DNA from: Acidobacteriota bacterium
Lineage (GTDB): Bacteria > Acidobacteriota > Terriglobia > 2-12-FULL-54-10
DNA length: 64,000 nt
Assembly: GCA_009691245.1 (NCBI GenBank)
Contig: SHUM01000004.1
Span: 9,032-73,031, forward strand
Direction of reading: 5' to 3'
Both the position numbers and the translations under genes were made by a program. Under the pieces are notes generated by a model. The model searched no databases. It saw only the letters and a list, made by a program, of their open reading frames with translations, and was not told the DNA's origin. Below are positions 13,182 through 54,798 of the stretch, in pieces; position 1 is the first letter of the stretch; each line of letters starts with the position of its first letter.

Positions 13182-15191
13182 CTACTCCCCGCGCTGCTCC
13201 TGGATCGCCTGCGCCCGCTTTCTCAGCGCGGTAGCCTCCTTCGTCCGCCCCAACTCCTGCAACACCGCCGCAAGGTTTTTGCATACCAGCGCAATATGAG
13301 GATGGTCAGGTGGCAGCGACTTTTCGCGGATGGCCAGCGCGCGGCGGTAGAGCGGCTCGGCTTGGCTGTACGCGCCGCGCCCGTTCAAGTAGAAGCCGGT
13401 CTGATTGAGCAGCAGCGCCGCCTCCACAAACTCAAACCCCAGGTTTTCGATCCAACGGGCGCAAGCCAAAGCCTGCGGCAGCATCCGCTCGCATCGAGAC
13501 CAATTCTGAAACTCAGGCATCGGGAAGGCTGCGTCCACGGCCCGCACGGCCCGTTCCGCATAATTCCGCCGGTCCTCCTGCGTCATCCTATCGCGAATAA
13601 CGGCTTGCGCAATCCTGTGAATGCTGTAGGCGCTGGCACCGGTGCTCCTGCTGATCAGGGAATATTTTCGGAGCGGCGCGAGCGCTTCATCCAGCAAGAG
13701 CGGGTTCTGCTGGTAGTCCGCCAGAGCCGCCCCCAGTGCGGAGCCAACCTGCGCAGCACCGCCGGTAACCAGCTCGAACGGGATGTCATCCGGCGCGAGG
13801 AAAGCGCTCACCCGCAGCAGCTCCGCGGCTGGCGGAGTCTTTTCCACTTCTCCAAAGTTTAGCTTCCAGGTGGTGGCCACTAATTCAGAATAGCCTCCGG
13901 CAACCGGACCACGATCATTCAGTAGAGCAACTCCACGATTGCGATAGGTCTTCAGGTAATCCTGGAACGTAGACTCCTTGGCCACAATGTAGGCCGCGGC
14001 CTGCTCCAATGCCAGCGGCAGATAGCCTAGCTCTTTGGCCAAATCCCGCGCGGCCTCCTGCTCCTTCTCCTGGCTTGACTGCCGCGAGGTGCGAGCCAGC
14101 AGGAAGTCCAAAGCCTCGTCTGGCTCGAAGTCTCCAAGGGAATGCGTTGTAACATTTCCCAGTGCGTCAAGAATGCCGGGGCGGGAAGTGAGCAGAATCG
14201 CGCCTTTGATTTCAATCGGAAGCAATGGCTTGATGAGTTCGGGCCAGTCCGCATTGTCAAAAATCAGGAGCCATCCGTCGTTTTCGCTTAACCAGCTCGT
14301 TACCGCATGGCGGACCACAGTCTGGTCCGAAGAATCGCTGCCGGGCAGTTCGAGCATTCGCGCGATTGTCCCGAATCCCGAATTGATGCTTTCCTCCGAG
14401 GAGGCTCGCACCCAGAGAATCGCGCGATAATCATCACGGTGCCGATAGGCGTATTCCGCCGCCGTTTGTGTCTTGCCCTTGCCGCCGAGACCTGTGATCG
14501 CCTGCTTCCTGATCCCCTTGGTGATGAAGTTTTCATGTAGGGTGGCGAGTAGTTTCTCGCGTCCTGTAAACCAATCGGTTCTTTGTTGCGGCACGATAAA
14601 GAACTTTTGGGGGACGACGAAATCTTGTTTGCGTTCTCTTGGTTGTAGATGCGGCTCCGGTCCCAGCGGGGGCTTTGGGGTGGCGTGCTTACCTTTTAGG
14701 CGGCGCAACAGGAGATCGAACCCCTCTTCTGTCGTTGGGTTGTAATGGTTAACCCCTTGAAGAACAATTGGAATGTGTTTAGCGTCATCAGCAGTGAATA
14801 CCACCGGAATGAACTTCGTGTTGCGACCTTGAGAATTGTACAATTCCTGCGTAATGATCGCGCCTTCCCAGGTTGCTCCCAGGCCTTTCCCTACTTCTTC
14901 TTTTTTCCGAAATCGCCGGAGATAAGTCTCGGTACAAATCACCAGGACAAATTCGGATGCCTCGATCTCATCCTCCATCCATGTCGGCCAGCCTTCCGGC
15001 GGGGAGTCGATATATTGATCGATCATGGCGTCAACATTGTTGTCGCGCAGCTTTTTGGCAAGGGCAAGCACTTGATCTTGGAAGGCAGTATCCCCATGTG
15101 CGTAACTGATGAATACGCGCTGTGCGGGACTGGGTTTCTCTTGGCTCAATCGCAACCTCGCATCAAACAAGCAGACAGTATCATAGCCCAC
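13182..15191 (-). CDS. SEFIR/TIR-like domain-NB-ARC (P-loop NTPase)-TPR STAND protein; candidate NLR-like antiphage immunity protein
   Basis: N-terminal VFISYAHGDTAFQDQVLALAKKLRDNNVDAMIDQY...FVLVICTETYL (SEFIR/TIR-superfamily signature). Walker A GLGGKGKTQTAAEY, Walker B LLIFDNAD, NB-ARC-like GxP region, and a C-terminal kinesin-light-chain-type TPR block. 669 aa. Confidence 0.85.
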   Translation of the reverse strand: MGYDTVCLFDARLRLSQEKPSPAQRVFISYAHGDTAFQDQVLALAKKLRDNNVDAMIDQYIDSPPEGWPTWMEDEIEASEFVLVICTETYLRRFRKKEEVGKGLGATWEGAIITQELYNSQGRNTKFIPVVFTADDAKHIPIVLQGVNHYNPTTEEGFDLLLRRLKGKHATPKPPLGPEPHLQPRERKQDFVVPQKFFIVPQQRTDWFTGREKLLATLHENFITKGIRKQAITGLGGKGKTQTAAEYAYRHRDDYRAILWVRASSEESINSGFGTIARMLELPGSDSSDQTVVRHAVTSWLSENDGWLLIFDNADWPELIKPLLPIEIKGAILLTSRPGILDALGNVTTHSLGDFEPDEALDFLLARTSRQSSQEKEQEAARDLAKELGYLPLALEQAAAYIVAKESTFQDYLKTYRNRGVALLNDRGPVAGGYSELVATTWKLNFGEVEKTPPAAELLRVSAFLAPDDIPFELVTGGAAQVGSALGAALADYQQNPLLLDEALAPLRKYSLISRSTGASAYSIHRIAQAVIRDRMTQEDRRNYAERAVRAVDAAFPMPEFQNWSRCERMLPQALACARWIENLGFEFVEAALLLNQTGFYLNGRGAYSQAEPLYRRALAIREKSLPPDHPHIALVCKNLAAVLQELGRTKEATALRKRAQAIQEQRGE

Positions 15192-18271: not shown

Positions 18272-18294
18272 CCCATCTGCGTAATCTGCGGATG
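18272..18294 (+). repeat. Copy of motif family S (CCCATCTGCGTAATCTGCGGATG)
   Basis: Seen directly; overlaps the start of the kinase remnant. Confidence 0.55.
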
Positions 18295-18660
18295 TTCCAA
18301 ACTATGGTTGGCAAGACGATCTCCCATTACCGGATCGTGGAGCTGCTGGGCGGCGGCGGGATGGGCGTCGTCTATCGGGCGGAGGACTTGACGCTCGGCC
18401 GCATGGTGGCGCTGAAGTTTCTCTCGGCGGAGTTGGCCGCGGATCGCCAGGCGCTCGAGCGTTTCCACCGCGAGGCGCGCGCGGCCTCGGCATTGAACCA
18501 TCCCAACATCTGCACCATTGAGGAGTACGAAGGCCAGCCCTTCATCGTGATGGAACTGCTCGATGGCGCGACGCTGAAGCACGCCATCGGCGGGCGAACA
18601 ACTGTACGAGTTGGGCGCGCAGGTGGCTCAACAAGTCGGTGGTGTACACAGCAGATGTTC
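18292..18660 (+). pseudogene. Ser/Thr protein kinase, N-terminal remnant (about 100 aa of kinase subdomains I-V, then frameshift and truncation)
   Basis: [26 protein letters not shown]...HPNICTI...[18 protein letters not shown]. The catalytic loop HRDLKP and the DFG/APE motifs are absent, and downstream sequence is unrelated. Confidence 0.7.
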
Positions 18661-18684
18661 TCACGAACATCTGTTATTTATTGG
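18652..18684 (+). terminator. Hairpin CAGATGTTC-TCAC-GAACATCTG followed by TTATTTATT at the kinase truncation point / island boundary
   Basis: Seen directly. Confidence 0.5.
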
Positions 18685-18763
18685 CAGCAAAAACGGTCGA
18701 ATTCTATTGATGTGAGCCGGGGGAAGGAGCGCGAGAACCGAATAGTGTAATGGGGAATTTCAG

Positions 18764-20020
18764 CTAACGAACCATGAGCTTGAAAGTGTAAGTTTGACCA
18801 TCGCCCAAAACAAGCCTGGCGTCTGACGCTGTTGGAGTTCCGGTACAGCAACTTGTATTTTGGAAGTTAACCTGATACAAGCTTACGGCTCCGGGAGAAA
18901 GTCCGGCGTAAACAATTTCCATTTCCGAACTTCCTACCAGCAAACGGGGTTTGGTCAGTAGCAGGTAAATGTCGCCAGGCGGAGCAAACTCGTTTATGGG
19001 TACAAACGGGGTGGTAGAGCCAAGGCCGGTTCCCCACAAAAGGTAATACTCGCCGCACACAAGTGGTTCACCCGGCGCAAGCAAGCGGTACTGGCTGTCC
19101 TGCACCAGGGTTCTTGCGTTTGGGTCAAAGACCTGGAATATCCCGGGGAACGAACTTGTGATTCCCAAGGAACTTGAGGTGTTAGATATCCCTTCTCGGT
19201 TTACAGTTATTCGGGTTGCGGTTCCTTCAATGTCCGGAACCAGAAAATTAACCTGGTTGGGAGAAACGAAATGGAGTGGCGCCTCTTTGTCACCAGAACT
19301 GCTAGTAACAAACACTCTCACGCCACCAAGAGTGGTGGGGAAAGGGGCGGTACTGGCGTGTTCGGTGCTGTTGGCTAGGTCACCCCACAAAGTCATCCAA
19401 GTTCCCGGTGCCAAGTTGGTTGCGGTAGCGAAACTAGCTGCATTGGTAATAGCGGTAATGTGCGGAGCGCCTACAGGAACAGGGAACACTTTGTATGTGA
19501 ATAGTCTGCCGTCGCTGACTTTCTGGACCAAGTACAGGAGCGGACCAGAAGCAACCATTCGTTGCATCTCTCCTTGCGGGGCGTCCAGGTCTGTAAGCAG
19601 GGTTTCCACAATTTGGCCAGAAAGACGGATCAAGCCTCGCACCCCGGGACGCAAAGTTGTTATGAAGTAAAGCGGTCCATTGGGGACCCCAGCAAGGCTA
19701 ATAACATCGCTAACCGTTACGTTTCCAACCCGGCCGTTGGTTACCAGCTTTTGCTCTAATGTATCCGGGTTTAGAAATTGGCTAACTTGCAGCCCACCAG
19801 AATTGGTGTAAGCCACTGTTGCTGTTTCATTATATACTGCAATGGCCGTAATATTCTGAAAGCCGGACAAAACGACTTTAGTTTCTCCCCACGTACCGTT
19901 GAACACGACACTAATGCGGAGCAGAGTACGGTCAGTTTCATTTACAACGTAGGCATATCTGGTATTGACCCCAACCAAGACTAAGCGTTTGTTTTCGCTC
20001 AATCTAATCCGGTAAATCAC
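18764..20020 (-). CDS. C-terminal part of a frameshifted secreted protein with a Solibacter-type C-terminal domain (GTG-initiated ORF in the track)
   Basis: The C-terminal 220 aa match the Solibacter-type C-terminal domain also present in the 27249 and 29126 products (PGIFQV...GEPLVCGEYYLLWGTGLG...AGLSPGAVSLYQVNFQ). No signal peptide at its own start. Local GC about 50 percent. Confidence 0.55.
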   Translation of the reverse strand: MIYRIRLSENKRLVLVGVNTRYAYVVNETDRTLLRISVVFNGTWGETKVVLSGFQNITAIAVYNETATVAYTNSGGLQVSQFLNPDTLEQKLVTNGRVGNVTVSDVISLAGVPNGPLYFITTLRPGVRGLIRLSGQIVETLLTDLDAPQGEMQRMVASGPLLYLVQKVSDGRLFTYKVFPVPVGAPHITAITNAASFATATNLAPGTWMTLWGDLANSTEHASTAPFPTTLGGVRVFVTSSSGDKEAPLHFVSPNQVNFLVPDIEGTATRITVNREGISNTSSSLGITSSFPGIFQVFDPNARTLVQDSQYRLLAPGEPLVCGEYYLLWGTGLGSTTPFVPINEFAPPGDIYLLLTKPRLLVGSSEMEIVYAGLSPGAVSLYQVNFQNTSCCTGTPTASDARLVLGDGQTYTFKLMVR

Positions 20021-20112: not shown

Positions 20113-20670
20113 CTATTCGACCAGAACCTTTTTTAAACCCCAGACATCCAAGAAAGTACCAACTGTCTCTGGCTTATTGCGGTAAGTTATTGTGTCGCTT
20201 GTTCCAAAGAGCCTAATAGGTGGACCAGGAAGACCGCGCCCTTTGACGTACAGGGTAGAGTTGTAAGTCGAAGAACTAGTTGGAGTGTACTTAACATAAT
20301 GTACTCCACCACTGCTCCCACAGGCTACAGCAGCCCTTGCTGATTGTGGGAAACGCCCTTGGAATGGGGCAATTAGGTAAGTGACTCCGCCTAAAGCGCT
20401 TTCATTACTCTGGTCTAAAAGTTCTGGCGTGGCAGCAATTCTGGGATCCCAGTGTTTAAGGAATAAGCCAGAATTGCTGCAAAGGCCGCCTTCGGTAAAA
20501 GGTGGTCCCGGATCATCGGCTGTGAAGGTTTCTGCCGGCAATGCAAGTAGCTGTGGTGAAAAACGGGAATCCGGAACTCCCTGCAGGGTTGTTAATTCTG
20601 CCCTGACTTTCGGAGACAGGGCTGCAACCAGTACTAACAAAAGAACCAATCCGCTAGGTTCGGATCTCAT
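20113..20670 (-). CDS. N-terminal part (signal peptide plus 160 aa) of the same frameshifted gene
   Basis: Signal peptide MRSEPSGLVLLLVLVAALSPKVRAE. The ORF terminates just after a T6/A6 tract at 20129-20134; the +1 frame continues uninterrupted into the 18764-20020 ORF. Confidence 0.55.
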   Translation of the reverse strand: MRSEPSGLVLLLVLVAALSPKVRAELTTLQGVPDSRFSPQLLALPAETFTADDPGPPFTEGGLCSNSGLFLKHWDPRIAATPELLDQSNESALGGVTYLIAPFQGRFPQSARAAVACGSSGGVHYVKYTPTSSSTYNSTLYVKGRGLPGPPIRLFGTSDTITYRNKPETVGTFLDVWGLKKVLVE

Positions 20671-29125: not shown

Positions 29126-30478
29126 ATGGGCTACAATCAAACGAATCATAACTCTGCCATCAATCGCAACAGCACCTCGTCAATTTGGAAAGTCGCGCTG
29201 CTGGCCTTGTCACTTCCGATCTTGGTGTACGCGTTTTCCCCCGCTCCCCCATCCGAACGTACGGGAGGATTTGGTGAATCCACATGCATCGGGTGCCATT
29301 TGGGGACTGCATTGAACGGAGGTGCCGGACGAGTAACCATTACGGGCGCTCCGACCGCCTACGTTAGCGGCACGGTCTATCCCATCACGGTGCGCGTGGA
29401 GGATCCCGGCGCCGACCGGAGGCGATGGGGATTTGAAATGAGTGCCCGCACTCAGGCTGGCGCGCAAGCCGGGACGCTCTCTCCGACCAACAACCAAACT
29501 GCTTTGGTGCCTAGCTTCAATGGAGTCCAGTACATTGCCCACACCGGCCCCGGCACTCGCGCGGGCACGGCAGCCGGAGTAAACTTTACTTTCAATTGGA
29601 CTGCTCCCAACACCTCGGCAGGCTCTGTAGTCTTCCATGCCACAGGTAACGCCGCAAACAACAGCGGGAGTGAAAATGGCGACCGCATCTACTCGACCTC
29701 AGCGACTGTGCCTGCGCAGGTCGCCGGTCCCGTGCCTACGGTTGCCGACGGAGCGACGGTCAACAACGGCAGCTTTGCGCAGCACCCTGCGCCGCTGGGG
29801 CCGGGGTCGATCGCGGCCATCTTCGGTGCTAACTTGAATGATGGGACCGCGCTTTGCTCGTCTAGTTTTGGCGGCGATGGCAAGCTGATCACCTCGTTGT
29901 GTGGAGCCAGCGTTACGGTGAACAACATCGCCGCGCCCATCTTCTACGCCACGCCTGGGCAATTGGGCATCCAGATACCTTTCGAGCTGGCGGGTTCGGC
30001 CACAGCAAACGTCACGGTAACGGTCGCGGGCCAGTCCAGCACGCCGCGCACAGTCTTCATTGATACCGCGGCACCAGGTATTTTTTCGCTGAGTCAAACC
30101 GGCAGCGGACCGGGAGCGATTCTGATCGCCAACAGCAATATTCTCGCCGTGGCCACGGGAAGCGTCCCGGGTCGGACCACGAGACCCGCGCGACGCGGTG
30201 AAATCGTAACCATCTTCTTGACCGGACTGGGAGTGACTTCTCCGGCTCTGGCCACCGGTTCGCCTTCCACTGGAAATCCTACCGCGACGCCCGCCACGGT
30301 TACCATTGATGCACTGCCGGCGACGGTGCTTTTTTCCGGAACCGCGCCCGGCTTCGTTGGACTGAACCAGATCAATGTAACCGTGCCCACCGCCGCGCGC
30401 ATCGCCAATGATGTACCGGTAGTGGTTACGCTTGGAACGAAAATCAGCAACACGGTAACCATGGCGGTGAGCCAGTAA
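29126..30478 (+). CDS. Secreted protein: N-terminal CxxCH (putative heme c) beta-sandwich module plus a Solibacter-type C-terminal domain
   Basis: Signal/TM, then GFGESTCIGCHLG; C-terminal PGIFSL...LTGLGVTSP...GFVGLNQINVTVP paralogous to the 27249 and 18764 C-termini. Confidence 0.6.
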   Translation: MGYNQTNHNSAINRNSTSSIWKVALLALSLPILVYAFSPAPPSERTGGFGESTCIGCHLGTALNGGAGRVTITGAPTAYVSGTVYPITVRVEDPGADRRRWGFEMSARTQAGAQAGTLSPTNNQTALVPSFNGVQYIAHTGPGTRAGTAAGVNFTFNWTAPNTSAGSVVFHATGNAANNSGSENGDRIYSTSATVPAQVAGPVPTVADGATVNNGSFAQHPAPLGPGSIAAIFGANLNDGTALCSSSFGGDGKLITSLCGASVTVNNIAAPIFYATPGQLGIQIPFELAGSATANVTVTVAGQSSTPRTVFIDTAAPGIFSLSQTGSGPGAILIANSNILAVATGSVPGRTTRPARRGEIVTIFLTGLGVTSPALATGSPSTGNPTATPATVTIDALPATVLFSGTAPGFVGLNQINVTVPTAARIANDVPVVVTLGTKISNTVTMAVSQ

Positions 30479-30615: not shown

Positions 30616-31923
30616 ATGGAGGATGCTGCGATGTTGCAACGAAGCGGTACACAGCTAATTGCATGGATGTCGATCACGTTAATCTTGTTGAGTGCCGCAG
30701 AGTCGCATGCGCTGCCCGCGTTCATGCGCCGCTTCAGTGAAGACCCCTTTTCGAAGACCGAGTGGCGCGGCCAGTGCGCGACCTGCCATGTGAACCCGCA
30801 GGGCGCGGGACCCCGCAATAACTTTGGGCAGGCCTTTGACAAGAACAATCGCACCATCACGCCGGAGTTTCGCGCCGCGTGGCTAGACCGCTTTGTCCTA
30901 ACGATAGATGTCGCACCCGCTGGTGCAGTAAAAGCCAGCTTCGTGAATGGCGGTCGCGAAGCGGTCATCGAAGTGGGCGGCGAATCCTTCCGCGTCAACG
31001 CGGCAGAAGGCAAGCTGGAGAAGCTCACCCTGGAGCAGGTCGCACAACTGAAGGGAAGCGCCACCGGGTTGGCTCCGGCCACGGCATCCGCCGCCGCGCC
31101 GACCGAGCAGCCGCTACGAAATGTCCCGACATTCGATCATGTGCTGGTCAACGTGCCCACCACTCTTGGCTACGAGAAAGGCGGCTTCAGCCTGCGCTTC
31201 ACCCACCGCTTTACGCAGCCCGTGCTGCGCGTGGGCGACGAATGCCCGGACTGTGGAGCAGTCAACGAACTATTCGGATTGGACAGTTTTTCTTACTCGT
31301 CTTTTGGCGGTGAGTTCGGATTAACTTCACGGCTCGCCGCGAGCGTCTACCGCAGCCCGCTCGATCGTACGTATGAGATCGGCGGCGTGCTGCAACTGCT
31401 GAACGGGAAGGGCCGCGAACCGGTTGCCGCGCAATTGCGTGTTTCCATGGAGTCGCGCCGGTTGTTCGATGCCGATAAGATTTCAGCCTCTACTCCGAAT
31501 GAGGAGCCTTTCTCGCGCTTCCAAACGTGGAATCTCGTCTTCCCGGTATCGCGTACGATCGCTAATGTAGCCGAAGTGTTTGTAGTGCCCACGATGAGTT
31601 TCCGTGTGAATCCCTACGAAAATGTTGGCGCCATCACCTTCCCAGAGGGAGAGCGGTGCGCGCATCAGGCTGCGCTTGGGCTGGGTGCCAGCATCCGCAT
31701 TCGCCCGCGCACGGCTTTCGTCGCCGAATGGACTCCGCGCGTAGCGGGCTACCACGCCACGGACTCGCGCAACGGCTTTGCCTTTGGCCTCCAGCGCAGC
31801 ACGAACGCGCACGTATTCAGCCTGGTGCTATCGAACACGGTAGCCACCACTACGGGACAGATGGCGGCTACAGGCACGCCTGATCTGCGCCTGGGCTTCA
31901 ACCTGTATCGCCGACTGCGCTAG
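30616..31923 (+). CDS. Secreted hypothetical protein with an N-terminal CxxCH motif (WRGQCATCH) and a beta-rich C-terminal region (possible outer-membrane barrel)
   Basis: Signal peptide; single heme-c motif; alternating hydrophobic pattern across about 300 aa. Confidence 0.5.
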   Translation: MEDAAMLQRSGTQLIAWMSITLILLSAAESHALPAFMRRFSEDPFSKTEWRGQCATCHVNPQGAGPRNNFGQAFDKNNRTITPEFRAAWLDRFVLTIDVAPAGAVKASFVNGGREAVIEVGGESFRVNAAEGKLEKLTLEQVAQLKGSATGLAPATASAAAPTEQPLRNVPTFDHVLVNVPTTLGYEKGGFSLRFTHRFTQPVLRVGDECPDCGAVNELFGLDSFSYSSFGGEFGLTSRLAASVYRSPLDRTYEIGGVLQLLNGKGREPVAAQLRVSMESRRLFDADKISASTPNEEPFSRFQTWNLVFPVSRTIANVAEVFVVPTMSFRVNPYENVGAITFPEGERCAHQAALGLGASIRIRPRTAFVAEWTPRVAGYHATDSRNGFAFGLQRSTNAHVFSLVLSNTVATTTGQMAATGTPDLRLGFNLYRRLR

Positions 31924-31993: not shown

Positions 31994-32638
31994 GTGACAC
32001 GGGCGGCGAGGCAGGCAGCGATGGAATGTCCGCAATGTGGAACGGAAAATCCCGAGAAAAGCTGGCAGTGTGCCTGCGGACATTATTTCGCACCGAGGGA
32101 AATGATTCCTGCGGTGCCCATCACCCCGGAATCGGCGCCGGACGGCACTCTCAACGCAGGAGCAGAACACTTTGCCAGCGTTGCGCCATCTGCTTCCATC
32201 GAGCCGATTAACGCCAGGCTATCTTTCCGCGGAGATGGCTCAACTCTGTTCGCGATTCATCTGGCCAACATAATTTTCACCATCTGCACTCTTGGGATCT
32301 ATTATTTTTGGGGCAAGGCCAAAGTCCGCCGCTATGTGTACGGGCAGACCGAGCTGGCCGGCGACCGCTTTGATTATCACGGCACCGGCAAGGAGTTAAT
32401 GCTTGGATCGTTCAAAGCCATGTTGCTGTTCGGCGGCACCGGGCTGCTCTACCAGTTGATGCTGGGAGCCTCTTCGAATCCTGGCATTCGTATCCTCTCG
32501 ATGCTCTTGTTTTACGCGATGCTGGCGCTGATAATTCCCATCGCCATCGTCGGGACGAAGCGCTTCCGGCTGAGTCGGACCTCGTGGCGCTCCATCAGTT
32601 TTTCCTTTCGCGGACACGCCCGTGAACTGATCGCATAG
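31994..32638 (+). CDS. DUF898 (YjgN-family) membrane protein, N-terminal half with zinc ribbon; ends at an in-frame TAG
   Basis: CPQCGTEN...CACGHYF zinc ribbon; TLGIYYFWGKAKVRRY repeat motif characteristic of DUF898. Confidence 0.65.
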   Translation: MTRAARQAAMECPQCGTENPEKSWQCACGHYFAPREMIPAVPITPESAPDGTLNAGAEHFASVAPSASIEPINARLSFRGDGSTLFAIHLANIIFTICTLGIYYFWGKAKVRRYVYGQTELAGDRFDYHGTGKELMLGSFKAMLLFGGTGLLYQLMLGASSNPGIRILSMLLFYAMLALIIPIAIVGTKRFRLSRTSWRSISFSFRGHARELIA

Positions 32639-32650
32639 TATGTCCGCGAC

Positions 32651-33154
32651 ATGCTTTTCATGATGGTCACGCTCTCGCTGTACTATCCTTTCTTTCAAAA
32701 CAATTTGCGTAAATTCGTGGTCTTCAACTCCTATTTCGGCAGCCAGCCGTTTGATTATGACGGGGAGGGCTGGGATCTCTTCCGCTATTTCGCGCTCATG
32801 GTGCTGCTGATCATTCCCACCCTCGGCCTCTACTGGTTCTGGTACACGGCGCAGAAGCATCGCTACTACTGGGAGCACACCAGCTTTGGACAGGCGAAGT
32901 TCCGGTCCACGATGAGTGGTGGCGAACTGGCCGGCATTAAAATCAGCAATTTCTTCCTGATCATATTCACGATGGGCCTGGCCTATCCCTGGGCCGTCGC
33001 GCGCTCGGTGCGTTATCAACTGGAGTGTCTGACTATGTATGGCCCAGTGGCTTTGGACAGCATTTTCCAGCACGCCAGCGCGGCAACGGCCACTGGCGAA
33101 GGGCTGGTGGACATGCTGGACGCCGGCATATTGGATATTGATTTCGGCTTCTGA
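32651..33154 (+). CDS. DUF898 (YjgN-family) membrane protein, C-terminal half; same frame as 31994-32638
   Basis: TLSLYYPFF, TLGLYWFWYTAQKHRYY and GLAYPWAVARSVRY repeats. 32651 and 31994 are in the same frame, separated only by TAG plus 4 codons. Confidence 0.65.
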   Translation: MLFMMVTLSLYYPFFQNNLRKFVVFNSYFGSQPFDYDGEGWDLFRYFALMVLLIIPTLGLYWFWYTAQKHRYYWEHTSFGQAKFRSTMSGGELAGIKISNFFLIIFTMGLAYPWAVARSVRYQLECLTMYGPVALDSIFQHASAATATGEGLVDMLDAGILDIDFGF

Positions 33155-33215: not shown

Positions 33216-34373
33216 ATGGTTGTCTCAGCCAACACTTCCTGGAAGGGTTATTACTATGACGGACGCACCGCGCGCCGACATTCAGTAACCGTGTCGCTCA
33301 CCTCGGCCGGTGTGTACATCAAGCGCGAGGAAGGTCAGACGCTGTGGTGGCTGCACGATCAAGTGCGTCTCGCCCAAGGGCACCATCCCGGCGAGCCGGT
33401 GCGCCTTGAAACCATGGCGGAGATATCCGAAGCGCTGGTGGTGGAGGATCGCGGATTCCTTGATGCGTTTCTGTTTGTTTCCCCTCCGGCGCGAAACTTG
33501 GCCTCTGGAACCGCCGAGAGATTGAATCGCAGTTTGCCGCTGTTGCTTGCAGGGCTGCTGGGCGCGGCCTTCTTAATCTACGCGACCTGGGTGTGGGGAC
33601 TTCCCGCCTTTGCCGACGCCGCCGCCCGTCGTGTTCCAGCAAGCTGGGAAGACAAGCTGGGACAATCGGTAATGGAACAGTTCGCGCCGCCCGATGAGAG
33701 ATGCAATGATCCTGACGCGCTGGCGAAGATACAGGAGATCATCCGCGTCATGCGCGGGCCCAATGCCCGCGGATATGAGGTGACTCTCGCCGTTGCCGAT
33801 ACTCCCATCCCCAACGCCTTCGCCGCTCCCGGCGGATATGTGGTAGTGTTTCGCGGTTTGCTGGAGCAGACCGAGAATGCCGAGGACCTGGCCGGCATGC
33901 TGGCGCATGAGATTCAGCACGTCGAACAGCGCCATGCCATGAAGGGCCTGGTCCGCCAGCTTTCCGTCGCCACTCTAGTGGCCGTGCTGGCGGGAGATGC
34001 TTCGGCCATACAATCCCTGCTGGACGCCGCAGCCACCCTGGGAAGTCTGCGCTATCAGCGTGATGATGAAGCGAACGCCGATACCGAAGCGGTGCGCATG
34101 CTCCAGGCAGCCCGCATCGACGCCACTGGCCTGCCACGCATGTTGGAACGCATGAGCAGCGACGAAGGCAAAGAGCCTGGCGGACTCCAATATCTTTCGT
34201 CGCATCCGCTGACTGCCGACCGCGTGCGCCGGTTAACCGCACTGGCAGTCCAGCACGCGACGGATGCCGTCCCACTATTGAAAGAAACAGACTGGAAGAG
34301 TGTGGCCTTCATGTGTGGGCCGCCGGACGATGAAGCGACGGATAAAAACTCCGCGGCCGCGAACGAACGATGA
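33216..34373 (+). CDS. M48-family zinc metallopeptidase with an N-terminal extension
   Basis: HEIQHVEQRH (HExxH) plus a downstream E; TM segment AAFLIYATWVWGL. Confidence 0.8.
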   Translation: MVVSANTSWKGYYYDGRTARRHSVTVSLTSAGVYIKREEGQTLWWLHDQVRLAQGHHPGEPVRLETMAEISEALVVEDRGFLDAFLFVSPPARNLASGTAERLNRSLPLLLAGLLGAAFLIYATWVWGLPAFADAAARRVPASWEDKLGQSVMEQFAPPDERCNDPDALAKIQEIIRVMRGPNARGYEVTLAVADTPIPNAFAAPGGYVVVFRGLLEQTENAEDLAGMLAHEIQHVEQRHAMKGLVRQLSVATLVAVLAGDASAIQSLLDAAATLGSLRYQRDDEANADTEAVRMLQAARIDATGLPRMLERMSSDEGKEPGGLQYLSSHPLTADRVRRLTALAVQHATDAVPLLKETDWKSVAFMCGPPDDEATDKNSAAANER

Positions 34374-49288: not shown

Positions 49289-50890
49289 TTATTCGCCGGA
49301 ACGGTCGCGATACTTGCCGGTGAACGGCGTTGCGCCCAGCTTCAACAGCATCTCAATTGTCTTCTTCTGCTCGCGCCCGGCGCGAAAGCGGTCATCGTAG
49401 CGGCCACCGGCCAATTGCCGGTAGATCAGACCTTCCGGATCGCCCATGGCGATGGAAATTGGCGTCTGTCCGTACATGTCCTTGGCGTCCAAGTTCGCGC
49501 CCTTGGATGCGAGGAATTCAATCACGGAAGTCCAGCCGAGATAAGTCGCCGCGTGCAGCGCGGTGCGCCCGTCTTCCTTGGCCGCGTTCACGTCCCCGCC
49601 CAGATCAACCGCCACCTTCAGCGCTTCCAGCGCCGCAGCTTCGCTGCGCATGTTGCGATCGGTGCCAAATCCGGCGGCAATCATCACCGGAGAAACATTT
49701 TCGGGTGTGGTAGTTTTGGGATCGGCGCGACCCTCGACCAGCACACGCATTGCGGACACATCGGCAGAAGCCGCGGCCAGCATGTACGGGGTGATGCCGA
49801 TCAAACTCAACTGCGGGTGATCGTTGCCGATGGAGCGGGCGATGGGCGCGTAATCGTAGGGGGGGAAATTCTTAAGTATCTTCGCGTTGGGATCGGCACC
49901 CTTCACCATCAGCGACTTTACCAACTCGGGCATGTTTTGTTTGGTCCAACCGAAGCGGTCGGTATCGGAACGCGTGGCGCCATCAATGGCCTGAATGCCG
50001 GCAACCAGCGCGTAGTGTAGCGCGGTTATTCCATAAGCGTCGGTCGCCTTGGGATCAGCGCCTTTCTCCAGCAGAAATAGCGCAACCTTCTCATGCCCAC
50101 TATGCGTGGCCACCACCAGCGGCGTGCCGTCTTCGGTCGAGGCATCGTCCACTTTGGCGCCAGCCGCGATCAGCATCTGCGCGGATTCCAGATCGCCCTG
50201 CCGCGCGGCGAACAGCAGCGACGTAAATCCGCCGGTGGTCTTCGGAAAGTACACACCCGCCTCGTAACTGCCGCCGAAAATGTTGGAGCTTTCAATGACG
50301 TAAGGGTCGCGATTGGGAATGATTTTCGAGCGGGCATGGACGCTTGCGCCACCGTCTACCAATGCGCGCACCACCGCAGGATGCCTTTCCGCCACGGCCC
50401 ACATCAGCGCGGTCTGGCCTCTCCTCTTCTCGGCGGCGCTGCTATCCGCGCCCTTGGCCAACAAAGCCTTCACGCCTTCAACCGTGCCGGTGCTGGAGCA
50501 GGTCATCAGCGGCGTCTCGCCCGTGATCTGCGCGAGGTTCGGATTGGCACCGGCCTTCAGCAGCGTCGCAACCATAGCCGCATTGCGGTTGGTGCAGGCC
50601 AACGTGAGTGGAGTAACGCCGTAGTCGTTCGCGGCGCTGACGTTCGCTCCAGCGCGGATCAGCAACTCCACCGACTCGGCGTCGTCGTGATGCACCGCCC
50701 ATGCCAGCGGTGTCGCGCCATCGGGCCGCGCTGCGTTCACATCCGCTTTGGCATTGAGCAAAGCTTTGATCGCCACTCGGTCGCCGCGCTCGGTGGCTTC
50801 CACCAGACGGAAGTCATCCGCAGCCCCGAACAAGCGCTGTGCGGTGGCGGCCAGGCAGAACAAACTAGTCAGGAAGATTCGATTGCGCAT
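49289..50890 (-). CDS. Secreted ankyrin-repeat protein
   Basis: At least 10 ANK repeats (GxTPLxxAxxxGHxxxVxxLLxxGA); signal peptide. Confidence 0.85.
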   Translation of the reverse strand: MRNRIFLTSLFCLAATAQRLFGAADDFRLVEATERGDRVAIKALLNAKADVNAARPDGATPLAWAVHHDDAESVELLIRAGANVSAANDYGVTPLTLACTNRNAAMVATLLKAGANPNLAQITGETPLMTCSSTGTVEGVKALLAKGADSSAAEKRRGQTALMWAVAERHPAVVRALVDGGASVHARSKIIPNRDPYVIESSNIFGGSYEAGVYFPKTTGGFTSLLFAARQGDLESAQMLIAAGAKVDDASTEDGTPLVVATHSGHEKVALFLLEKGADPKATDAYGITALHYALVAGIQAIDGATRSDTDRFGWTKQNMPELVKSLMVKGADPNAKILKNFPPYDYAPIARSIGNDHPQLSLIGITPYMLAAASADVSAMRVLVEGRADPKTTTPENVSPVMIAAGFGTDRNMRSEAAALEALKVAVDLGGDVNAAKEDGRTALHAATYLGWTSVIEFLASKGANLDAKDMYGQTPISIAMGDPEGLIYRQLAGGRYDDRFRAGREQKKTIEMLLKLGATPFTGKYRDRSGE

Positions 50891-50959
50891 CGTAATAAGA
50901 AGGCGGGGGTTGCCCCCCGCGCTTCGGTTTGAAAGGGTCTCACAGAGTAAACGTGTTCG

Positions 50960-52330
50960 CTAGACAGTCGTCAAATCCAGTTTGCCGGTGGCGTCGCTGT
51001 ACTTGGCATCGAGCCATCCATCTACGGAGACGCCGGCGATATCCATCACCGACAGCAGCACGTTCGAGAACGGCTGCCCGGGGAAGCGCAGGTGGCGATC
51101 ACCCTTCAGCTTGCCGTGCGCGCCGCCGACCAACATGACCGGAATGTTGTTGTGGATGTGGAAATTGCCATCGCTCAAGCCGCTGCCGAACAGCACCAGC
51201 GAGTGATCGAGCAACGTCCCATCGCCATCCGGCGTGTTGCGCAACCGCTCAATGAAGTGCGCGAACAACTGGGCCTGGAACAGGTCAACTTTCGCCACCA
51301 GTTCAATCGTCTCGGGAACTTCCTTGTGGTGCGAGAGCGGGTGATGGCCGTCGCCTACCCCAATCTCGCGGAAGGTTCGGTCGGTTTGCTCGCGGCCCAT
51401 CATCATGGTGGTGACGCGCGTCAGGTCCGACTGGAACGCCAGCACTTGCAGATCAAACATCAGCTTGGCATGCTCGGAGTACTTCGCGGGAATGCCCGCG
51501 GGCCGCTCCAAGTTTGATTTGCCAGCCACGGTGGGTTGACCCTCGGCGGGCTCATCGGATTTTTCGGCCACCTGAATGCGGCGCTCAATATCGCGTATGG
51601 CATCGAGGTACTCGCTCAACTTCGCGCGGTCACCCGATCCGATGCCGCCCATCATGCGCGAGACACCGTCGCTAACGGAGTCCAGAATGCTGCGCTCTTT
51701 CTGCATACGGCGAGCGCGAGCGGCTGCGTCGGCTGAATCGGTATCACCATACATGCGCTCGAACACGGCGCGCGGATTGATCTCCATGGGCAGCGCCGTC
51801 GCAGCGCCACGCCAGGAAATGGTGTTCATGTAATAGGCGCCGTAGCTGCCGTCGCTAACAGCCGTTTCAGGCGCGTCGAGAGCCATTTCGAGCGACCCGA
51901 GCTGCGTTTCCTTGCCCGCCTCCCGGGCGATCATCTGGTCCATCGACACTCCGAGCGCCCCGCCGGGCTTCGGATGCAAACCCGTAAGGAAAGCGGCGGC
52001 CGGGCGCGCGTGTACCCCGCCAGGCTCGTTGCCCACCGCGTCGGCAGCCTTGATGTTCAGGCCCGTCAGCACCGTGAGCTGGTCCTTAAAGGGAGCCAGC
52101 GGCGCGAGGGTAGGGGAGATTTCAAAACCCACACCATCGGTGCGCGGCGTCCATCTGGACATGATGCGGCCATTGGGCACGAAGACGGTCGCCACGCGCA
52201 GGGGCTTCTTGCCCGTGTCGTTCACCGCTGCCATCGCTGGCGACATGCTATCCAGCATAGGCAACGCCAAGGCGGCACCCGCTCCACGCAGGAATGTACG
52301 ACGGGGAATGGCTTTCTTGAATATCATCAT
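50960..52330 (-). CDS. DUF1501 protein with Tat signal (paralog of 41745-43133)
   Basis: MMIFKKAIPRRTFLRGAGAALALPMLD; ATGA overlap with the upstream gene. Confidence 0.85.
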   Translation of the reverse strand: MMIFKKAIPRRTFLRGAGAALALPMLDSMSPAMAAVNDTGKKPLRVATVFVPNGRIMSRWTPRTDGVGFEISPTLAPLAPFKDQLTVLTGLNIKAADAVGNEPGGVHARPAAAFLTGLHPKPGGALGVSMDQMIAREAGKETQLGSLEMALDAPETAVSDGSYGAYYMNTISWRGAATALPMEINPRAVFERMYGDTDSADAAARARRMQKERSILDSVSDGVSRMMGGIGSGDRAKLSEYLDAIRDIERRIQVAEKSDEPAEGQPTVAGKSNLERPAGIPAKYSEHAKLMFDLQVLAFQSDLTRVTTMMMGREQTDRTFREIGVGDGHHPLSHHKEVPETIELVAKVDLFQAQLFAHFIERLRNTPDGDGTLLDHSLVLFGSGLSDGNFHIHNNIPVMLVGGAHGKLKGDRHLRFPGQPFSNVLLSVMDIAGVSVDGWLDAKYSDATGKLDLTTV

Positions 52331-54798
52331 AGCTCTTTCGACCTCCTCATTAAAAACGGCTGACTCTTTACGATTCCGGTAATCAGGGCCGACCAGCGGT
52401 ATCCGCCGGGCGCGGCATCTCGCAGAATTTTGCGCACCGACGCCATATCATAATACTCCACTCTGCGTCCCAATGCATAGATAAGCATCTTCTCAGTCAC
52501 GGTGTTCATGAACTGGTGGGGATTCTTGAGCAGCGTCTCGCGAAACTCCACAGTGCCGTTGATCGGGGTTCCGTCGGGCAGCACGCCGGTGGCGTCAATG
52601 GGCGGGTTGCCATCGCCAAATGGGCTTTCGGTGCGCCACTTGCCGATGGGATCAAAGTTCTCCATGGCGAAGCCGATGGGATCCATCAGCTTGTGGCAGC
52701 TAATACAGGCAGGATTGGCGCGGTGCTGCTCCATCTGCTGCTTCAAGGTCAGCGCCTTGCCTTCCTTGCTCTTGGGTTGCAGATCGGGAACATTTGGTGG
52801 CGGCGGCGGCGGCGGCGTGCCCAGCAAATTCTCCAGTACCCACTTGCCGCGCACCACCGGTGAAGTCCGATTGGCGCGCGAAGTCAGCGTCAAAATGCTG
52901 CCTTGGCCGAGCAAGCCGCGGCGAGTGTTGAAGGCCGCGTCCGCCAGAGAAACCTTGCGGAAGTGGCTGCCATAGACGTTGGGGATGCCGTAGTGTTTGG
53001 CCAGCCGCTCGTTCACATATGTGAAATCGGCGCGCAGCATATCCAGGACGGAGCGGTCCTCGTGCAGCATATCGGCGAAGAACAGTTCGCTCTCGCGCTC
53101 GAATCCCTCGCGCAGGTTGTCATCATAATCCGGGAACATATCCGGGTCAGGCGAAAGCAGCTTCAGGTTGCGCAGGCTCAGCCACTGGCCGGCGAAGTTG
53201 CTCACCAGCGCCTCGGCACGACGATCCGCCATCATGCGCTTCACCTGCTGGTCGAGCACACCGGGGTCCTTCAGCTTGCCCTTTTCGGCGAGTGCGATTA
53301 ACTCTTCATCGGGAATGCTGGACCACAAAAAAAATGATAGCCGAGAAGCGAGTTCCAGATCGCTAACCGCGTAAGGCTTGCCCGTCGCCGCGCCCGTGGG
53401 ATCCTGCTCCACGCGGAACAGAAACTCAGGGCCAGCCAGGATGCGTTGCACGGCAAGCTGAACGCCTGCTTCAAAGCCGCCGTCCTTGGTGCCTTCGACA
53501 TAAAGCTTCATCAGCGGATCAATCTCGCCGGCCACCACGGGACGACGATAGGCGCGGCGCGCCAGCGTGGAGATGATCTTGCGCGCGCAAGGCTCCTGCT
53601 CAGCGGCGCTTTTCGGGGCGCAGGAGAATATCTTTTCGCGGCTGGCGGTCTCGCCCGAGCCTTTGGGCGCAAACGGTCCCGTGATGGTAACCGAGGCCAC
53701 GGCCGGATTGCCGCCACGATACTGGCCCAGGTCGGCATAGAGCAGCGGCGGCGTGTACACGCCCTCGGGCTTCGAGTTTTCCATTAGGAACGCAACGCCC
53801 ACCAGGCGCGCGCCTGCCTTCATGGGGAAGCGCGAAACCAGCGCATCATCGGCGGAATATTCGTAGTCCACTTGCTTGGTGTCGCCGCGATAGTCCGGAT
53901 CATTGCGCGAGAAGATCGGACCGGAGCGACCGCGGTATTCGCCGCCAATCGTGAACAGCTTCACGCGCGCGCCATCCACGCGAATGTCGAGCGGATGCGG
54001 ATCGCGCAGCCCGCGAATGTAGCCGTCGTTGTTGCGGACCAGCTTGATGCTGACCTCGTACTCGCCATCGAGCGCGAAGTTGTGGCGCACGGCAAGTCCG
54101 CCGCGCGAGCCGAACATCAAGTCTTCGCTGGCGCGATCCTCCTGCACCACCAACTGCGGAGTTTCGTAGGTAACGCCGCTGGGCTTCTGCGTGGGATCGC
54201 CCACGGCCATGCGACTGATCTTGCCCGCCGCAAGCATGTAGCGCTCCATCAGCACGGGAGAAACCGAGAGCACTTCCCCAATGTTATCGAATCCATGCTC
54301 GATATTATCAGGGGGCAGCAACGATGCAGAGTCAATCTCCATGGCTAGCAGATCACGGATGGCGTTGGTGTACTCGGCACGATTCAAACGATGCACGCTG
54401 GCAGTTCGCCCAGGATTCGCATTGGCTGCGGCGGCCTTGTCGAGCGAAGTCTCCAGATACGTGGTGAATGCGGTCAGCGTCGCTTTGTCAGGGCGCGGCG
54501 CGCCTCCCGGAGGCATTTGTCCGGCACGCAATTTTTTGACGGCCGTTTCCCAAATCTGCGCGTCGCGGGAAACATCATCAGCGTCAGCCTTATCGAGCGA
54601 CAGGCCCGCGGTGTTGAGTTTTTCATTATGGCAGGTAACACAATAGCGGCTGACCAGCACGCGATGCGGCGAAACTGGCGCAACAGCGGCAGGCTGTTGC
54701 TGCGCTTGGCTGGATGCGCTCGTGGCCAGCGCCACCACGATCATCGCCACCTGAAAATTCCGTCTGATATTCATCAACAACCTTCGGCCTTCGGCCAT
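52327..54798 (-). CDS. Cytochrome-c-like N-terminus / DUF1549 / DUF1553 protein (paralog of 43130-45601)
   Basis: RYCVTCHNEKLNTAG; 823 aa. Confidence 0.85.
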   Translation of the reverse strand: MAEGRRLLMNIRRNFQVAMIVVALATSASSQAQQQPAAVAPVSPHRVLVSRYCVTCHNEKLNTAGLSLDKADADDVSRDAQIWETAVKKLRAGQMPPGGAPRPDKATLTAFTTYLETSLDKAAAANANPGRTASVHRLNRAEYTNAIRDLLAMEIDSASLLPPDNIEHGFDNIGEVLSVSPVLMERYMLAAGKISRMAVGDPTQKPSGVTYETPQLVVQEDRASEDLMFGSRGGLAVRHNFALDGEYEVSIKLVRNNDGYIRGLRDPHPLDIRVDGARVKLFTIGGEYRGRSGPIFSRNDPDYRGDTKQVDYEYSADDALVSRFPMKAGARLVGVAFLMENSKPEGVYTPPLLYADLGQYRGGNPAVASVTITGPFAPKGSGETASREKIFSCAPKSAAEQEPCARKIISTLARRAYRRPVVAGEIDPLMKLYVEGTKDGGFEAGVQLAVQRILAGPEFLFRVEQDPTGAATGKPYAVSDLELASRLSFFLWSSIPDEELIALAEKGKLKDPGVLDQQVKRMMADRRAEALVSNFAGQWLSLRNLKLLSPDPDMFPDYDDNLREGFERESELFFADMLHEDRSVLDMLRADFTYVNERLAKHYGIPNVYGSHFRKVSLADAAFNTRRGLLGQGSILTLTSRANRTSPVVRGKWVLENLLGTPPPPPPPNVPDLQPKSKEGKALTLKQQMEQHRANPACISCHKLMDPIGFAMENFDPIGKWRTESPFGDGNPPIDATGVLPDGTPINGTVEFRETLLKNPHQFMNTVTEKMLIYALGRRVEYYDMASVRKILRDAAPGGYRWSALITGIVKSQPFLMRRSKEL

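Follow-up and report, generated by a model that had tools for sequence, protein, structure and literature searches.

The family DUF898 (PF05987) has its eponym in YjgN (b4257) of Escherichia coli. In the literature on DUF898/YjgN we found incidental mentions only and no functional study. Other bacteria have DUF898 proteins of about 100 aa that consist of a single repeat (PMC6753144), so that fragments of the fold need not be inert. The protein analysed here belongs to the same Pfam family as YjgN and has in common with it a repeat unit containing a TLGxYxxW turn. The two proteins are distant from each other and match only locally, over single repeats, at 27-43% identity; the first repeat of YjgN (residues 12-75) can be aligned to each of the four repeats of our protein, which confirms the repeat structure. 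YjgN has no N-terminal zinc ribbon, and its gene is flanked by yjgM and valS, without a neighbouring gene for an M48 peptidase. Therefore, the pairing with such a peptidase described below marks the subfamily of our locus and not the DUF898 family as a whole.

The nearest orthologue is found in the metagenome-assembled genome (MAG) of Candidatus Sulfopaludibacter sp. SbA3 (GCA_945865705.1, CAMBEY010000099.1; P0001 and L001/L006 in our sets), with 81-87% identity at the protein and 93-95% at the DNA level. Gene order is the same in both genomes: DUF5777, DUF898, DUF7092/M48, Lactamase_B_3, Yip1, UppS, CdsA and Dxr. The SbA3 gene is an unbroken 396-aa ORF which, at the site where our locus has a stop codon, reads CAG (L001); its linker is longer and highly divergent. 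The protease encoded next to the DUF898 gene shares the Peptidase_M48 domain with its HExxH motif with BepA, LoiP, HtpX and the Geobacter M48 peptidase of PDB entry 3c37.

One DUF898 gene in two pieces

The window, that is the whole analysed stretch of 64,000 nucleotides, contains the following features of the locus:

32021..33154, + strand: whole DUF898/YjgN-family gene, 377 codons with Gln206 restored; amber stop inside the window allele
32021..32638, + strand: coding sequence of the N-terminal fragment, 205 aa plus TAG (another, upstream GTG start at 31994), with zinc ribbon, variable linker, repeat 1, long transmembrane hairpin and the beta-hairpin of repeat 2
about 32027-32080, + strand: zinc ribbon CPQC...CACG, within the N-terminal fragment
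32636..32638, + strand: premature TAG, read as a C-to-T transition at 32636 from an ancestral CAG (Gln206)
32651..33154, + strand: downstream remainder, called separately as a 167-aa coding sequence of its own from ATG 32651, with the rest of repeat 2, repeats 3-4 and the acidic C-terminal tail ATGEGL..LD.G.LD.D.GF
33216..34373, + strand: intact M48 partner, with a DUF7092 N-domain, one hydrophobic helix and Peptidase_M48

The initial annotation had described two ORFs in the same frame which are separated by a TAG and the four sense codons YVRD only, and had regarded them as the halves of one DUF898 protein. Both points are borne out. The ORFs 31994..32638 (214 aa when read from the GTG) and 32651..33154 (167 aa) form one frame, and the window reads ATC GCA TAG TAT GTC CGC GAC ATG at 32630-32653, so that nothing but TAG 32636-32638 and the codons for YVRD lies between them. 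The matches of the halves to PF05987, for which the gathering score is 28 bits, are complementary: the N half covers positions 3-130 of the 336 positions of the profile (E 8.8e-37, 127 bits), and the C half reaches position 336 (E 4.4e-33, 115 bits). When the Gln is restored, the match runs unbroken over the stop site and rises to 248 bits (E 1.4e-73), with residues 66-270 corresponding to profile positions 3-197. The match of both halves is far beyond chance. The window allele itself does not encode an uninterrupted polypeptide colinear with the family, as it is broken by TAG at codon 206. The repeated motif occurs four times, as TLGIYYFW, TLSLYYPF, TLGLYWFW and TMGLAYPW, with one copy in the N half and three in the C half.

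A search of a large protein collection with the rebuilt protein yielded about 1,640 single-chain homologues, the best of which are 350-396 aa long and cover 100% of the query. These homologues begin with M-x-CPxCG, which points to ATG 32021 as the real start. Translation most likely begins there, giving a protein of 377 aa, and the fused length of about 385 aa proposed at first has to be corrected to this value. In GenBank, entries identical to the halves exist on a 98.5-kb contig as MSO19219.1 (205 aa) and MSO19220.1 (167 aa), both under the title "MAG: DUF898 family protein [Acidobacteria bacterium]". Thus, the public record shows two genes and no pseudogene, where we see one gene with a nonsense allele.

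The ancestral codon and two alleles in Lake Baikal

An exact look-up of the M48 protein of the window led to two contigs of the Logan assemblies and to the ENA assembly ERZ1305449. The first Logan contig (L004, from SRR8561391) shows 3 differences from the window in 4,370 bases (99.93% identity) and has C at 32636, hence CAG; the second (L005, from SRR8561390) shows 1 difference in 4,060 bases, and its base at this position is T, hence TAG. SRR8561390 and SRR8561391 are samples of Lake Baikal water from depths of 1250 m and 1350 m, respectively (PMC7678222). The ENA assembly, which was made with MEGAHIT, contains both versions: the split genes for 205 and 167 aa lie on a 5,021-bp contig, and a 10,014-bp contig bears a partial 280-aa ORF that is open across the stop site. 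Counted by assembly, and on the level of the assembly consensus only, T at 32636 is present in three (GenBank MAG, Logan, ENA), and two have C or a frame that is open at the site.

The initial annotation had pointed out that a single base change would turn the TAG back into a sense codon and had proposed to read the residue at this site from an alignment of homologues. The codon is indeed found as CAG (Gln), both in the 99.93% identical contig and in the nearest orthologue. In our alignment of 30 sequences the column of the stop varies, with Q in P0001 and P0003 and P, N, I, T or L in the others, and the nearest clade has Q, P or N there. Over the best 80 of 552 related loci the column holds I in 38 cases, L in 35, Q in two and other residues in five. 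The ancestral codon can therefore be identified, and close orthologues carry a sense codon where the window has its in-frame stop, as one expects for a nonsense allele. An exact-pattern scan of JGI metagenomes for the TAG or the CAG allele gave no match, and the hypothetical intact protein of 377 or 386 aa as well as the partial 280-aa product were absent from the protein collection by exact look-up.

Taken together, these data argue for a single DUF898 gene with a recent nonsense mutation from CAG to TAG that is segregating in a natural acidobacterial population of deep Lake Baikal, a reading to which we assign a probability of about 0.8. The host would be an uncultured acidobacterium related to Ca. 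Sulfopaludibacter living in the deep water of this lake. The C-to-T change at 32636 would convert Gln206 to a stop, and translation from ATG 32021 would end after residue 205. The 167-aa ORF downstream would be a remnant which is called as a gene owing to a chance ATG 12 nt past the stop, and the allele would be too young for further damage to have built up.

The pattern of substitutions is consistent with such a young age. Between the window and L001, dN/dS is 0.18 in the N-terminal core, 0.18 in the part C-terminal of the stop and 0.18 in the M48 gene. As the value is the same on both sides of the stop, the gene was, judged from these substitution rates, functional until recently, and the lineage was under purifying selection on both sides. 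The Baikal haplotypes are only one to three differences apart, too few to reveal any relaxation of selection since the stop arose. The conserved core is free of stops in all of the best 80 of the 552 related loci. One apparent in-frame stop, in locus L058, was rejected: the sequence around it is not homologous and precedes the real start.

Predicted architecture and what the truncation removes

An AlphaFold model of the intact orthologue was obtained from an alignment of 82 sequences (pLDDT 86.8, pTM 0.79). It shows a zinc ribbon, a disordered linker and four repeats in this order, with a long transmembrane hairpin inserted after repeat 1. Each modelled repeat consists of a beta-hairpin, a hydrophobic helix of 17 residues, the TLGxYxxW turn and a basic amphipathic helix of 14 residues. 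The model is confident, yet no solved structural relative was found for it.

In this model the stop maps to Q225 of the orthologue, seventh in the hydrophobic helix (residues 219-235) that belongs to repeat 2. The break thus falls inside a helix and not at a boundary between repeats. The truncation costs the protein 171 of its 377 residues (45%). With them go the conserved acidic C-terminal tail, all TLGxYxxW motifs but one of the four, and 16 of the 42 columns that show no variation among the 30 aligned sequences. From sequence and model together, we infer that the TAG allele is probably null.

Two regions of the protein differ strongly in their conservation. The linker between zinc ribbon and repeat 1 (32081-32220) is hypervariable in comparison with L001: the BLAST alignment breaks here and synonymous differences are saturated. 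The linker of the orthologue is 19 residues longer than that of the window, and the sequence flanking it has a dN/dS of 0.18. The tail (33030-33151) follows the strongly conserved pattern Q.EA.AA(S/T)ATGEGL.D.LD.G.LD.D.GF, which ends nearly all homologues. Its low confidence in the model suggests a flexible peptide, at which the partner protease could dock or cleave.

Other explanations for the stop

Three readings had been put forward originally: a nonsense pseudogene, a sequencing error and tolerated readthrough. The first of them stands and can be sharpened to a mutation from an ancestral CAG, an error is unlikely, and readthrough finds no support. An error in sequencing or assembly would mean that the organism really has CAG. 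The difference is a single base only, and the three assemblies with T may share the reads of one sample from 1250 m. Consensus substitution errors are rare in short-read assemblies. The same T was obtained by three pipelines (GenBank MAG, Logan and MEGAHIT at ENA), which makes an error unlikely, and the ENA assembly separates the two versions as distinct contigs, as real strain variation predicts; we therefore regard this explanation as very unlikely. The stop could also be real and the gene functionally split, with termination at TAG, reinitiation at ATG 32651 and assembly of the 205-aa and 167-aa fragments into a working DUF898 protein. In favour of such a view are the four repeats of the protein, the in-frame ATG 12 nt past the stop, the occurrence of single-repeat DUF898 proteins such as the 101-aa OG1RF_10877 (PMC6753144) and the TAG allele at consensus in one sample. 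However, according to the orthologue model the break lies within a helix instead of between repeats, no Shine-Dalgarno-like sequence precedes ATG 32651, and its Met is not conserved in homologues. Homologues that are naturally two genes at this very position would have spoken for the split, and the initial annotation had named them as a refuting case: among the best 80 of 552 relatives there are none (0/80; one tblastn segment each, the top matches being full length), and an intact allele coexists. A functional split gene is thus quite unlikely, even if some reinitiation may take place at ATG 32651.

A programmed or tolerated decoding of TAG, by a suppressor tRNA, as pyrrolysine or by leaky readthrough, would yield a full-length protein and would fit the fully open and undamaged downstream frame, but an undamaged frame is equally expected of a very young mutation. 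TAG is the commonest ordinary stop of the window, ending 19 of 42 crude gene calls including that of the gene directly upstream, and on these grounds recoding, with pyrrolysine as its special case, was rejected. The sole tRNA of the window is tRNA-Ser(UGA), no tRNA(CUA) being present in it; furthermore, no orthologue among the best 80 of 552 loci has a stop at this site and the sister haplotype reads CAG. The base following the stop is T, which in E. coli makes a strong termination context. We consider decoding of this TAG extremely improbable, and retain the young nonsense allele as our reading of the locus.

A possible second nonsense allele at Trp97

The contig with the CAG allele has a further difference from the window within the DUF898 gene, at this position:

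32309..32311, + strand: TGG codon of the family-invariant Trp97; TGA in L004 (positions 11-13 of that contig)

Here, L004 has A instead of G at 32311, 13 nt from the contig end. The resulting TGA explains why the gene of L004 was called from an internal GTG. It may be a second nonsense allele or, the site being only 13 nt from the contig end, an artefact. The independent 10-kb contig of the ENA assembly begins exactly at 32312, one base past the Trp97 codon, and a break at this position would be expected if the assembly graph branches at a real variant. An exact look-up of the 96-aa W97* fragment in the protein collection found nothing, and a look-up of the upstream DUF5777 protein for contigs crossing 32311 returned only the two already known ones.

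Recurrent, independent inactivation of DUF898 in this deep-lake population, with the M48 gene kept intact, is a rather unlikely scenario. If it were true, strains living side by side would carry two different knock-outs of one gene, a sign that the DUF898 protein is selected against, for instance because it serves as a phage receptor or is a costly protease partner, and the strains would provide a natural genetic handle on a widely conserved, uncharacterised DUF898-M48 membrane module.

The M48 partner and the two-gene module

The initial annotation had noticed an adjoining M48 peptidase with HExxH motif and a transmembrane segment of its own, and had suggested that the same pairing occurs elsewhere. 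The gene (33216..34373) starts 61 nt downstream of the DUF898 gene, and its product has the motif as HEIQH, encoded at 33906-33920, and one hydrophobic segment. With 97 bits against a cut-off of 20.3 for PF01435 it belongs to the M48 peptidases. The protein is identical between the TAG and the CAG haplotype.

The pairing is substantiated by a survey of genomes covering the best 80 of 552 confirmed relatives from about ten phyla (Acidobacteriota, Methylomirabilota, Nitrospirota, Latescibacterota, Thermodesulfobacteriota, Verrucomicrobiota, Armatimonadota, Cyanobacteria, Dormibacterota and Limnocylindria). A full-length homologue of the window's M48 protein is encoded on the same strand in 78 of these best 80 loci and directly downstream in 74 of them, where we estimate the median gap at about 9 nt. 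In three loci from Nitrospira-type MAGs (L047, L059 and L065) it is located about 1.4 kb upstream of the DUF898 gene; L047 has an extra, weaker M48-like match downstream. L045 shows a partial M48 match only, just downstream; the contig of L033 stops just past the DUF898 gene, and L034 has no M48 gene. None of the window's other neighbours is conserved across the best 80 of 552 loci, which defines the unit as a two-gene module.

Thus, among the best 80 of 552 loci, the DUF898 subfamily with zinc ribbon and four repeats is almost invariably coupled to a DUF7092-anchored M48 peptidase, across about ten phyla. We have low confidence in any particular role, but the DUF898 protein might be a membrane-embedded partner of the protease, acting as its adaptor, regulator or substrate. 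In this case, cells with the TAG allele would run the protease without its partner. By PADLOC, neither the DUF898 nor the M48 gene matches a known model of a defence system. As a conserved membrane module of two genes, the pair offers a testable way towards the function of either family, and a natural strain in which DUF898 is null, as we suppose, and M48 intact would suggest that at least one habitat allows the module to be dispensed with.

Other features of the window

The window was also scanned in all six frames for long open frames parted by a single stop, as a check for other broken genes that would betray a poor assembly. Two flagged pairs turned out, by their Pfam matches, to be unrelated neighbours: a CHASE2-cyclase next to an Ig-like protein, and a DUF1552 protein next to an ankyrin protein. 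The only second damaged gene is a kinase remnant at 18292. Scans for promoters and terminators around the genes gave nothing above the expectation from shuffled sequences.

The 152-aa ORF at 18292-18750 (+) matches positions 1-92 of the 263 of the protein-kinase profile only and continues into unrelated sequence; by this match it is a truncated Ser/Thr kinase remnant. Adjoining it are two ORFs on the minus strand, 18764-20020 and 20113-20670, without Pfam match, which failed a crude filter on GC content by codon position. The arrangement suggests that an insertion cut the kinase gene. A 669-aa protein of the STAND type, composed of SEFIR/TIR, NB-ARC and TPR domains, is encoded at 13182-15191 (-); its N-terminal domain matches PADLOC bSEFIR (E 1.5e-50), making it a candidate anti-phage defence gene.

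The genes just upstream of DUF898 encode a choice-of-anchor V / Solibacter C-terminal domain (TIGR03437) protein (29126-30478, +) and a membrane beta-barrel of the DUF5777 type, in which a CxxCH motif resembles that of cytochromes (30616-31923, +). The TIGR03437 domain supports an origin from an acidobacterium of the Solibacter/Bryobacter type. At 49289-54798 (-) a multidomain protein of the DUF1592/DUF1588 family with a planctomycete-type cytochrome c domain is followed in a row by a DUF1552 (HXXSHH) protein and a 533-aa ankyrin-repeat protein.

Comparison with known systems

The nearest solved relatives of the window protease are 3c37 (E 1e-23) and BepA. When scored against the equivalog families of NCBIfam it stays far under their cut-offs, with 73 against 570 bits for BepA, 42 against 365 for LoiP and at most 34 against at least 245 for HtpX. 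An assignment as equivalog of BepA, LoiP or HtpX was therefore rejected, all scores being below the respective cut-offs. Unlike these three and 3c37, the protease has a DUF7092 N-domain and a single hydrophobic anchor, has no TPR domain and is coupled to DUF898.

The stop itself is an ordinary kind of event whose main importance is for annotation, and the DUF898-M48 module is the more useful by-product of its analysis. As in ordinary nonsense pseudogenes and segregating loss-of-function alleles, a single base creates a premature stop in a conserved gene while intact alleles coexist. The case described here is the same in kind, a probable loss-of-function polymorphism caught cleanly within one lake; it is unusually well documented for a metagenomic case, because both alleles were assembled from adjacent depths.
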